From: a virus
Taxonomy: Duplodnaviria > Heunggongvirae > Uroviricota > Caudoviricetes
Reading direction: 5' to 3' (one strand)
IMG/VR virus record: IMGVR_UViG_3300031133_000383
Coordinates: 373,044 to 437,043 of that record
DNA: 64,000 nt
Shown here one piece after another: positions 2,057-60,380 of this stretch. The stretch's first letter is position 1, and each line of letters begins with the position of its first letter. The translations under genes and the position numbers were made by a program. Below the pieces are notes generated by a model that was not told the DNA's origin, searched no databases, and worked only from the letters and a program-made list of their open reading frames with translations.

Positions 2057-2085
2057 TTGACTGTAAACCATCATTTTGATAATAT
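2057..2085 (+). promoter_or_regulatory. sigma70-like promoter of tRNA/ncRNA operon
   Basis: TTGACT-17bp-TAATAT with extended TG. Confidence 0.75.
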
Positions 2086-2096
2086 AGTCACATCAA

Positions 2097-2180
2097 GCCC
2101 GAGTGGTGGAATGGTAGACGCGGTGGATTCAAAATCCTCTGTCGAAAGACGTGCCGGTTCGAGTCCGGCTTCGGGCACCA
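2097..2180 (+). tRNA. tRNA-Leu(CAA)
   Basis: Cloverleaf, long variable arm, loop TTCAAAA, encoded CCA. Confidence 0.95.
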
Positions 2181-2195
2181 AATTTATATTTTAAC

Positions 2196-2340
2196 TGTTG
2201 AAAAGAGATGCTGTGCTAATACCAGTGTGGCAGTAGAGGTGGTGACCTATTACTTTATTGCATGATGTTAGCAGGGTTATGAAAGTCACTATAATAGTTA
2301 AGGGTTGGTAGTAATGCATTTTCAATCTCTCTATGCATTA
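2196..2340 (+). ncRNA. structured ncRNA family A, copy 1 (unassigned)
   Basis: Tandem paralog at 2369-2520 with compensatory stem changes. Confidence 0.7.
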
Positions 2341-2368
2341 TGACTTTTATTGTTGGTAAGGTTTCAAT

Positions 2369-2520
2369 TGTCGAAAAGAGATGCAGTGGTAACACCCAAG
2401 CGGTGATAGAATTGGTGACCTATTATTTTATCACACGATGTTGCCATTAGTCAGGAAAGTCACTATAACAATTGAGACAGCAGTAGATGTGTTGTGTGCT
2501 TTAAATCTCTTTGTACACTG
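2369..2520 (+). ncRNA. structured ncRNA family A, copy 2 (unassigned)
   Basis: Shares GAAAAGAGATGC, GGTGACCTATTA, GAAAGTCACTATAA and AATCTCT with copy 1. Confidence 0.7.
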
Positions 2521-2568
2521 CATGCTGGACTACTGATTTGTAACGCAGGTTTTTATCCCTGCATTCTA

Positions 2569-2655
2569 TTTTGTTTAGGCTTGTAGCTCAGATGGTAGAG
2601 CGGAGGGCAGAAACCCTCGCGTCGGAGATTCGATTTCTTCCTCGCCTAGACAAAA
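2569..2655 (+). ncRNA. tRNA-Phe-like RNA with 6-nt anticodon loop, extended acceptor stem, no CCA
   Basis: Canonical D and T arms; GAGGG-CAGAAA-CCCTC; paralog at 16119. Confidence 0.7.
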
Positions 2656-58581: not shown

Positions 58582-59767
58582 CAAATCTTAGTAAAAAGAA
58601 TGCCCCTCGATTCATCTATGGGGATGAATTTTTATGATTCAAATTATTGACTTTATTGATAATTTATTGTAAAATTCTGAGATGAATAATCTAACGACCA
58701 TTAAAACTCTAAAAATTAGAGTTAAAGACAAACATAAAGGCGTTCTTTGCCAAATGGCGAAGAACGTTAATCTCGTTTGGAACTTCGTTAATGAAATCAG
58801 TACTCGCTCAATTGTTGAGCGTAACAAATTCCTTTCCGCTAGAGATCTTCAAAAATACACCGATGGTTCTTCAAAACTACTCAAATTGCATAGTCAAACT
58901 ATTCAAGGAATTTGTGATGAATATGCTACTCGTAGAATTCAATTCAAGAAAAGAAAATTAAAATGGCGAAAATCGGTAGGATCTAGACGATCTCTTGGTT
59001 GGGTTCCTTTTAAGGCTAGTGCTGTTTCTTATAAAAATGGTCAAATTCATTTTAATAAACATCATTTTTCTATTTGGGACAGTTACGGACTGTCCAAATA
59101 TAAATTTAAAAGTGGTTCTTTTAATGAAGATGCTCGTGGTCGATGGTACTTCAACGTAGCAGTTGAAGTTCCAAGAACATTCTCTTCAAGCCAAGGTAGT
59201 GTAGGGATTGATCTTGGGTTTAAAGAATCTGCTGTCTGCAGTGACGGTTTTAAAACAGAAAGAAATAGGATTTATCGTTCTTATGAAAAGAAATTAGCTA
59301 TTGCTCAACGTTCTAACAACAAAGTTAGAACGAGAGCTATTCACGCTAAAATTGCTAATATTCGAAAAGATACACTTCATAAATTCACACATCATTTAGT
59401 CAAAAACTACAGTGAAATTTATGTAGGTGATTTGAGCATTAAGAAAATGCTCAAAGCCAAAAGAGGAAAGTCTACGTTAGATGCCGCTCATGGCATGATA
59501 AGAAGTATGCTGGTTTATAAATGCGATAACGCAGGCATACATCACAATGTGAATGTAGACGAAAAAAACACTACCCGCACCTGTCATTCGTGTAAGTCTC
59601 TAACAGGACCGAAAGGATTAGATGGGCTGCGAATAAGAGTATGGACTTGTTGTGTGTGTGGTGACACACACAATCGGGATGAAAATTCCGCTAAGAATAT
59701 ACTTGAGGTCGGACATGGCCTTCTAGCAGTAGGAATCCCCTTGCTTTAGCTATGGGGTGGATGTCAA
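58582..59767 (+). mobile_element. IS605-family tnpB-only element
   Basis: Inserted 3' of TTAC, right end TCAA (IS608-like); CCCC..ATGGGG hairpins at both ends. Confidence 0.88.
58682..59749 (+). CDS. tnpB: RNA-guided endonuclease TnpB
   Basis: GIDLG, VGD, zinc ribbon CHSC/CCVC, RDENSAKNI. Confidence 0.95.
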   Translation: MNNLTTIKTLKIRVKDKHKGVLCQMAKNVNLVWNFVNEISTRSIVERNKFLSARDLQKYTDGSSKLLKLHSQTIQGICDEYATRRIQFKKRKLKWRKSVGSRRSLGWVPFKASAVSYKNGQIHFNKHHFSIWDSYGLSKYKFKSGSFNEDARGRWYFNVAVEVPRTFSSSQGSVGIDLGFKESAVCSDGFKTERNRIYRSYEKKLAIAQRSNNKVRTRAIHAKIANIRKDTLHKFTHHLVKNYSEIYVGDLSIKKMLKAKRGKSTLDAAHGMIRSMLVYKCDNAGIHHNVNVDEKNTTRTCHSCKSLTGPKGLDGLRIRVWTCCVCGDTHNRDENSAKNILEVGHGLLAVGIPLL

Positions 59768-60380
59768 ACAGTCTTGATCATTTCTATGGACGCATGGTTA
59801 TTGTGACTGAACAAATAGACGTTAACCAGTTTGCTTTAGATTCAGATTATCTAGATACTTCAAAAAAAGATACAATTTCCAATTGGAATCATTCTTGTAT
59901 TCAACAATTGCATTCTATACTGCAACAAGATATTTCGAATGGCATAACACTGGTTTGTGGTTTTCTTTTTTGATAAAAATAAAATCAGTTGTTTTGATAG
60001 TTCATTTGTTGGTTATTTTTATTTATCTACTGTTTGGGAGAATATACTCGGCGGTAGTGAAAGTTATTGTCTTGATTATGATGACATTGTTGAATATGCA
60101 AATTTCTTCAATCTACCTATGCCAAAAGTGATGTATCGTGGACTATTTGACAAGTATAAACTCATTGACATTGCTGACAAATTAGACAGCTTGACAATTA
60201 ATGGTTATATTTTGAGAACTGTTGATGGCTTTATGCGACATGAATTAAACAAGTGTGTTGCAATATATAGATCACCGACTGTTAAGAAGCTATTGTTTTA
60301 GTTATCATCTAAAAATTAAATTGACAGCTATTTTACTTTTTTGGTATACTATACATTCATTATTGATTGGAGTTAAAAAG

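Follow-up and report, generated by a model that had tools for sequence, protein, structure and literature searches.

Small stable RNAs encoded in the transfer RNA (tRNA) operons of phages have been known since species 1 and 2 of phage T4. These RNAs, RNAC (species 1, 139 nt) and RNAD (species 2, 119 nt), are encoded in tandem directly after tRNA-Arg, at the end of the T4 tRNA unit. Their roles are still unknown (PMC3014915, PMC9697503). Here, we analyzed a 64,000-nt stretch of DNA (the window), which is the final 64 kb of the 437,043-bp virus record IMGVR_UViG_3300031133_000383, an uncultured phage. The first-pass annotation, made from the sequence alone, had placed a tandem pair of structured RNAs with two pseudoknots at positions 2196-2520, inside a tRNA-Leu operon; we refer to this pair as family A and to its copies as A1 and A2. 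Our results show that A1 and A2 have a genuine RNA fold, which is new but falls within a general kind already known, the structured RNAs of phage tRNA operons. Like the T4 pair, they are two small non-coding RNA (ncRNA) genes standing in tandem behind a tRNA in the same unit. However, whereas the family A copies are paralogs with pseudoknots, the two T4 RNAs show no evident paralogy to each other, and one of them, RNAC, terminates in a T arm like that of a tRNA. A covariance model built from A1 and A2 only (R1) gave at most 5.5 bits on rnaC and rnaD and nothing significant in that region of T4, and MAFFT produced no meaningful alignment of A1/A2 with rnaC/rnaD.

The other described systems that come close share single properties with this locus. 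GOLLD (RF02032) and ROOL RNAs are also phage-borne, linked to tRNAs and elaborately folded, but they are 3-5 times larger and form multimeric cages as seen by cryo-electron microscopy (PMC12286853). The GOLLD and ROOL models had no match in the window, either at gathering score or at E ≤ 10, although this search did detect the GOLLD of Xanthomonas phage XacN1 (227 bits). The theta ribozymes, minimal ribozymes of the hepatitis delta virus (HDV) type, are likewise small pseudoknotted RNAs that adjoin phage tRNAs (PMC10879173). In contrast to them, A1 and A2 have neither the theta/HDV strand order nor P1.1, P3 and P4 elements of that fold, and no Rfam HDV-type family matched at E ≤ 10. ToxI, finally, a type III antitoxin RNA, consists of near-identical units of ~36 nt that are cut by the adjacent toxin. 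As tandem repeats of pseudoknotted RNA, ToxI and the pseudo-ToxI of phage phiTE resemble our pair, and such repeats can be used by a phage as a protein decoy (PMC3594212). A1 and A2, however, are paralogous units placed 173 nt apart with 77-83% (about 80%) identity, and the flanking open reading frames (ORFs) are without a toxin-like Pfam domain.

Every pairing quoted in the first-pass annotation was found in its place in both copies. The fold (Table 1) comprises the helices Pa, Pb and P3 and the pseudoknots PK1 and PK2. The annotation had also claimed that the copies diverge and nevertheless keep their pairing, and this was borne out by a two-row alignment, in which standard pairs occupied 98.6% of the cells: although 20 of the 50 helix positions differ between A1 and A2, 24 of the 25 pairs are kept, and 7 of them are altered on both sides. 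When the 3' partners were slid by 1-3 columns as a control, only 28-51% of the cells were paired, with 0-2 double-changed pairs. Random placement of the 20 changes with the observed transition bias gave an equal result in 656 of 1,000,000 trials, a figure that is somewhat optimistic, since the structure was picked after both copies had been viewed. RNAalifold found Pa, Pb and P3 independently. The single-sequence folding energies are ordinary (z -0.5 and -1.7) and carry no weight.

The pseudoknot strands behave differently from the helices. None of their 24 positions is changed, compared with 25 of 77 unpaired positions; they are therefore conserved, yet without covariation inside this phage. 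Four blocks of 7-14 nt, which include all four pseudoknot strands, are 100% identical in A1 and A2, and outside these blocks one third of the positions differ between the copies. The internal loop between Pa and Pb is asymmetric and conserved as well, with CC..G.G in its 5' strand and AYGA in its 3' strand. The invariant GGTGAC, which had been noted as able to pair with a downstream GTCACT, does so in both copies, and the equivalent pairing covaries in the relatives described below. The second proposed pairing, of the 5' AGAGAT with ATCTCT in the loop of the 3' hairpin, is likewise present and invariant in both copies, but here covariation gives no support, and RNAalifold offered AGAGAU an alternative partner in the 3' strand of PK1. 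Because of its conserved G-U pairs, the fold is compatible with the + strand only, on which the tRNAs are encoded too. As to coding, the longest ORF over the A1/A2 region has 46 aa. A minus-strand peptide common to both copies was considered and rejected, since in the sole shared frame the substitutions are spread over the codon positions without bias (8/6/6). We conclude that A1 and A2 are almost certainly selected, structured ncRNA genes. For the three helices and, through the relatives, for PK1 the evolutionary evidence is good; PK2 is an unproven prediction, and neither PK2 nor P3, both of them specific to this phage, has support from covariation. A further helix, P0, is uncertain: the flank ACUGU (AUUGU in A2, 2367-2371) could pair with AUAGU (ACAAU in A2) just past PK1, with one pair altered on both sides between the copies according to RNAalifold, and the RNA-library contigs described below begin downstream of it, at 2202-2205.

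Table 1 Features of the family A transcription unit (positions in the window)
Feature	Position	Strand	Basis or remark
Sigma-70-type promoter-like site	2057..2085	+	Consensus scan, match only: TTGACT, 17 nt, TAATAT, TG before the -10
tRNA-Leu(CAA), encoded CCA, first gene of the unit	2097..2180	+	ARAGORN; Rfam tRNA 47.8 bits
P0, possible extra helix	2194..2198	+	RNAalifold, columns 1-5 with 102-106
Copy A1	2204..2340	+	Pairings, RNAalifold, R2 alignment
Copy A2	2377..2520	+	Pairings, RNAalifold, R2 alignment
Pa	A1 2214-2221/2266-2273; A2 2387-2394/2439-2446	+	
Pb	A1 2230-2238/2253-2261; A2 2403-2411/2426-2434	+	
PK1 (GGTGAC/GTCACT)	A1 2241-2246/2285-2290; A2 2414-2419/2459-2464	+	
PK2 (AGAGAT/ATCTCT), predicted	A1 2204-2209/2325-2330; A2 2377-2382/2505-2510	+	
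P3	A1 2312-2319/2333-2340; A2 2492-2499/2513-2520	+	Predicted 3' strand of PK2 in the P3 loop
Terminator-like element downstream of A2 and ahead of the tRNA-like element: short G+C hairpin, then a T-rich tract	2545..2562	+	Sequence scan
Aberrant tRNA-like element closing the unit	2577..2648	+	Rfam tRNA 40.4 bits, mismatches marked

The search for known relatives of the whole element was negative. At gathering score Rfam 15 reported only tRNAs in the window, and even at E ≤ 10 nothing fell on 2196-2520, the Rfam search being one of the checks proposed in the first-pass annotation. In blastn against phages, plasmids and E. coli genomes, A1 and A2 found no match. With R1, neither the window nor the genome as a whole yielded a third copy, and there was none near tRNA-Leu(UAG); exact-pattern scans of viral, metagenome and genome collections returned chance matches or a sister strain only. 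The invariant blocks have no other copies or antisense targets in the genome. The sister strain (contigs L009 and L023) is 99.8% identical, with zero differences in 2097-2660; since only 12 differences occur in 5 kb, this invariance is uninformative.

A relative of the 5' part of the element was found among Xanthomonas and Stenotrophomonas phages. When R1 was run unfiltered on the tRNA region of Xanthomonas phage XacN1, its best match scored 12 bits and aligned Pa, the internal loop and Pb; this match is flanked by a tRNA on one side and a weak tRNA-like element on the other. Copies of this XacN1 element, 85-94% identical, stand in unannotated tRNA spacers of the Xanthomonas phages Xoo-sp13 and BUDD and of Stenotrophomonas phages of the genus Menderavirus (six phages: Moby, YB07, IME-SM1, BUCT608, Yut2 and Ps15). 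We named this unannotated pseudoknot module of ~80 nt the X module; it is not in Rfam, and we found no published description of it. A blastn search with the Xoo-sp13 module returned the same 14 records again, and a scan of viral contigs for the X core gave 2 contigs and no useful new homolog. The X module has an 11-bp Pa, a 9-bp Pb with a conserved purine-purine mismatch and an internal loop with CCCAAGGG opposite ACGA. A 6-mer in its Pb loop pairs with a 6-mer located at least 5 nt past Pa, which corresponds to PK1, and this pairing covaries (GCCAGU/ACUGGC, GCUAGU/ACUAGC, GCCGGU/ACCGGC and CCUAGU/ACUAGG).

The two models recognize each other's sequences. In all five loci tested (XacN1 and four others), the X module was the top-ranking match of R1, with 5-14 bits and over model positions ~21-80. 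Conversely, a covariance model built from five X sequences only, without A1 and A2 (R2), was run unfiltered on both strands of the whole 64-kb window (128 kb). Its top match was A2 (2382-2462, 21.8 bits, E 4e-4) and its second was A1 (2209-2289, 10.5 bits, E 1); these E-values are rough, because the model calibration was shortened. R2 aligned both copies over its full length in the expected register, and in the resulting alignment of nine sequences Pa and Pb remain paired through many pair types. Pb has 9 bp in all members compared, A1 and A2 included. The internal loops hardly differ: CCCAAGCG/ACGA in A2 and CCAGUGUG/AUGA in A1, compared with the above-mentioned loop of the X module. The PK1 pairing is present in A1 and A2 as GGUGAC/GUCACU, with linker lengths that differ from those of the X members.

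To summarize, the X module and A1/A2 share Pa and Pb, the internal loop, the length of Pb and the topology of PK1. They differ in that the X module is present as a single copy with a longer Pa, the Pb mismatch and other PK1 letters and lacks P3 and PK2, with tRNAs 5-10 nt away, whereas family A is AT-rich, duplicated and ~60 nt longer. Because the top ranks are reciprocal, the internal loops nearly identical and the pseudoknot topology the same without being encoded in the models, these comparisons argue that the Pa-Pb-PK1 core of A1 and A2 (their 5' two-thirds) is probably a diverged member of the X module related to it by common descent. Family A would then consist of the X core plus the 3' hairpin P3 and the closing pseudoknot PK2, found in A1 and A2 and nowhere else, as an add-on of this phage. 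Thus, the earlier proposal of an unassigned class of structured RNA holds insofar as the element is structured and is matched neither in Rfam nor by blastn, but the class is not wholly isolated, since Xanthomonas and Stenotrophomonas phages carry the module, itself unannotated, of which its core is a member. An RNA core of an uncultured 437-kb phage is thereby connected with its counterparts in XacN1, BUDD, Moby and IME-SM1, which are open to cultivation and editing, and the role of the core becomes a testable question. The family belongs in RNA databases, since it is now blank or mis-annotated in phage genomes.

The family is linked to tRNA-Leu genes. In every lineage, the module lies inside a tRNA array, at a distance of a few nt to ~190 nt from tRNA genes, and the first standard tRNA downstream of it is a tRNA-Leu. 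The gene orders are tRNA-Pro, X, tRNA-Leu(UAG) and a two-piece transfer-messenger RNA (tmRNA) in Menderavirus; tRNA-Leu(UAA), X and tRNA-Leu(CAA) in BUDD; X, 110 nt and tRNA-Leu(UAG) in Xoo-sp13; tRNA, X, a weak tRNA-like element and tRNA-Leu(UAG) in XacN1; and tRNA-Leu(CAA), A1, A2, the tRNA-like element and then tRNA-Leu(UAA) in the window. As these tRNA-Leu genes represent three lineages, we count about three, rather than five, occurrences of the link. Its cause could be either the movement of the genes together as one cassette or a function. The tRNA-Leu placement and the frozen pseudoknot strands together supply concrete hypotheses.

The same regions contain further RNA genes. The tRNA region of XacN1 holds a full-length, unannotated GOLLD (227 bits; L032:9071-9484, AP018399 ~38.6 kb), which lies ~200 nt upstream of the X module, and a tmRNA (tag ANANTFDYALAA; L032:7678-8122, AP018399 ~37.2 kb). 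Both recur in the other terminal repeat, and the text of the XacN1 paper names neither of them. In Menderavirus, a permuted two-piece tmRNA (tag VAANDDSYTVRIAA; L033:640-1028 and L036:635-1009) directly follows the tRNA-Leu downstream of the X module. The Moby annotation assigns part of the tmRNA stretch to a hypothetical protein of 37 aa, and that of BUCT608 labels the tRNAs "similar to hypothetical protein".

The placement of A1 and A2 in a tRNA-Leu operon was confirmed. The unit opens with a promoter-like site whose predicted start lies ~5 nt ahead of tRNA-Leu(CAA), and a consensus scan found no promoter of its own for A1 or A2. A second, near-identical promoter-like site at 2772-2800 precedes the next tRNA-Leu and the next tRNA group. 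In the tRNA-like element that closes the unit, the anticodon loop is 6 nt long (CAGAAA), the acceptor stem contains two mismatches and CCA is not encoded; the element was recognized only by the Rfam tRNA model and missed by ARAGORN. A paralog of this element with a 6-nt anticodon loop UAGAAG is located at 16119-16194.

Four metatranscriptome runs, which come from at least three studies, yielded contigs that differ from the window at 0-1 positions and span 2203-2626, 2205-2627, 2387-2645, and 2202-2352 plus 2348-2498. Three of the contigs have their starts inside a 4-nt interval (2202-2205), with no loose end; the DNA contigs of the sister strain (L009 and L023) extend past both sides of this span. 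These contigs hint weakly at a 5' end of an RNA near 2202, immediately ahead of the 5' strand of PK2, and at a transcript in which A1, A2 and the tRNA-like element are joined. Since contigs bridge both the A1-A2 and the A2-tRNA-like junctions, some RNA molecules cross these joints, and since they also cross the hairpin at 2545-2562, it is a leaky terminator at most. No RNA-library contigs cover 1850-2100 or 2650-2810, an absence that carries no evidential weight.

We propose, with a probability of about 0.5, that A1 and A2 are stable ncRNAs that are excised from a tRNA precursor, much like T4 RNAC and RNAD, and act in trans by binding protein. According to this proposal, the two paralogous genes would each specify a compact, non-protein RNA of ~140 nt, in which Pa stacks on Pb to form a long hairpin broken by the asymmetric internal loop. 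The Pb loop would join a 6-7-mer downstream of Pa in PK1, and the P3 loop AUCUCU would pair back to the 5' AGAGAU in PK2, shutting the domain. The unit of promoter, tRNA-Leu(CAA), A1, A2 and tRNA-like element would be transcribed by the host RNA polymerase. Removal of tRNA-Leu by cutting in the AU-rich spacer would leave an RNA starting at ~2202, at least a part of which would remain joined via A2 to the tRNA-like 3' end, and the host tRNA-processing enzymes would free an abundant, stable, trans-acting RNA. Such a release through tRNA processing is, in our opinion, somewhat more probable than not. The RNA might then bind a protein in the sphere of tRNA and translation, as a decoy or a scaffold, and two copies would provide twice the binding sites. 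The protein-binding or decoy role is tentative and rather doubtful. For the release and the trans-acting role alike, we rely on four observations: the fold is compact and contains frozen blocks, the promoter-like site is strong, the gene is duplicated, and T4 offers a precedent.

Several points weigh against this proposal. In this phage it is based on n=2 sequences, in which both pseudoknots are invariant and PK2 shows no covariation. The scores that link A1 and A2 to the X module are weak (5-22 bits), the two copies do not count as independent sequences, and the loop lengths around PK1 differ (2+6 nt vs 4+2 nt). Given the bridging contigs, a single RNA of ~445 nt with the tRNA-like element at its end may be the functional unit; such an RNA agrees with the contigs as well as separate units of ~140 nt do. 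Furthermore, assembled contigs give no strand, true ends or abundance, and DNA carry-over is possible. Finally, the protein-binding role is a guess.

The same observations can be read in other ways. One of them takes the invariant pseudoknot strands as pairing between copies or molecules, so that the RNA would assemble by itself into dimers or larger complexes. The contrast between helices that covary freely and 24 frozen pseudoknot positions is what would be expected in this case; the copies stand in tandem and are joined in the RNA-library contigs; the relative XacN1 carries GOLLD in the same tRNA region; and natural RNA-only cages and oligomers are documented, namely for GOLLD, ROOL and some RNAs of less than 200 nt (PMC12286853; bioRxiv 10.64898/2026.07.01.735769). 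If true, the pair would be a miniature counterpart of the GOLLD and ROOL cages, tied to tRNA-Leu and common to culturable phages. However, the invariance fits a tertiary core or a protein contact equally well, the nucleotides flanking the pseudoknots are invariant too, and in the single-copy relatives PK1 covaries as an ordinary intramolecular pseudoknot, so we regard such an assembly as unlikely. The invariant core blocks, the compact double-pseudoknot fold and the position directly behind a tRNA would also suit a self-cleaving ribozyme that assists the cutting of the tRNA precursor; phage tRNA arrays processed by HDV-like theta ribozymes are known (PMC10879173), and RNA contigs start at 2202-2205, at the 5' edge of the PK2 strand. 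This explanation appears quite unlikely to us, since no Rfam ribozyme family matched at E ≤ 10, the strand order (PK2 5', Pa, Pb, PK1 5', Pb', Pa', PK1 3', P3, PK2 3', P3') is unlike that of HDV, contigs of two runs bridge the equivalent site of A2 (~2375), which argues against efficient cleavage, and the AU-rich spacer past the tRNA is an ordinary target of host RNases.

A cis-acting function, either as a tandem riboswitch-like leader or as a processing or stability element for the downstream tRNA-like gene, is suggested by the arrangement of two aptamer-like domains ahead of the weak terminator-like hairpin and the tRNA-like element, and the pairing of AGAGAU with the 3' strand of PK1 could serve as an alternative conformation. 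Against it, neither an ORF nor a standard expression platform follows, no Rfam riboswitch matched, A1 has no comparable terminator and the contigs read through the one behind A2. In the relatives, the module is only 5-10 nt from tRNAs on both sides; because this leaves no space for an expression platform, a riboswitch-like role is unlikely, and we see only a slim chance of a cis-acting function. Many phage small RNAs (sRNAs) act by antisense pairing, and the invariant blocks of 12-14 nt could in principle be used in this way on a phage or host mRNA. But these blocks are largely consumed by the internal pseudoknots, and no standout complementary site with at most 2 mismatches was present in the 437-kb phage genome, making a base-pairing sRNA very unlikely. 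That the region is a decaying duplication or a functionless spacer is hardly credible: the exact form is confined to one phage lineage without a close homolog in the collections searched, but compensatory changes, frozen blocks and a core common to distant phages are not expected for neutral sequence. Taken together, a stable RNA released from the tRNA precursor is the explanation that we prefer.

Some specific candidates were tried and rejected. The basal G-U of PK1 resembles that of HDV P1, but no partners for P2, P3 and P4 of an HDV fold were seen by eye. A K-turn in the internal loop was discarded, as the bulged strand is without the required G-A. Capture of a tRNA CCA end by the UGGU of the Pb loop, as in a T-box, was dropped, since this motif is absent from the X module and no Rfam T-box matched. 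A piece of a tmRNA was rejected as well: neither ARAGORN nor Rfam detected a tmRNA in the window, and ARAGORN detected none in the whole genome.

An omega RNA of a TnpB element was also considered. It was rejected because family A is unchanged without the upstream tnpB element; moreover, the 3' end of that element scores 1.6 bits with R1, and a 23-bit R1 match inside the tnpB coding region, which is without Pb and P3, was taken as chance. The element itself is a 1,186-bp insertion of the IS200/IS605 type found in the sister strains at window position 1992/1993 (L009:1211-2396 and L023:1483-2668), ~200 nt upstream of family A. It sits directly after TTAC, ~65 nt upstream of the tRNA-Leu promoter-like site, and encodes a 365-aa TnpB (OrfB_IS605 and Cas12f1-like TNB domains), the ORF of which continues 9 nt beyond the end of the element into the flank. 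A resident TnpB copy in the window (58682-59770) is 84% identical to the inserted one in protein and 81% in DNA and contains one in-frame TAG. The genome also has a tRNA with the anticodon CUA, of the amber-suppressor type (2904-2977), inside which a strain difference is located (2952 G>A). Reading TAG as sense scarcely extends the ORFs genome-wide.

The phage genome has 30.9% G+C, uses the standard genetic code and encodes 26 tRNA genes as well as DnaK, an NAD-dependent ligase and an M3 peptidase. Among deposited phages, no close relative of the 437-kb genome was found; a PF03237 terminase search of the genome gave no match, a 710-aa ORF had no match among phages, and the proteins neighbouring family A had no relatives in IMG/VR or in a set of 5.8 billion proteins. 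Phyllosphere, leaf, seed and dairy metagenomes, however, contain near-identical DNA, and a 777-aa ORF of the phage shares 45% identity with proteins of XacN1 and Xoo-sp13, both of them jumbo phages. XacN1 has been noted for a very large tRNA complement within its long terminal repeats (PMC5852040). For a giant phage, the genome is unusually rich in small genes: only 123 frames in 437 kb exceed 300 codons, and unless TAA is read as sense, the longest ORF stays below 800 aa whichever stop codons are assumed. Besides family A, the window contains two paralogous ORF-free pairs without an Rfam match, 8712-8845/8886-9019 and 12060-12332/15252-15521, which are 79-94% identical, and in which each stretch ends at the 5' end of a tRNA (Cys for the one pair, Pro and Asn for the other).

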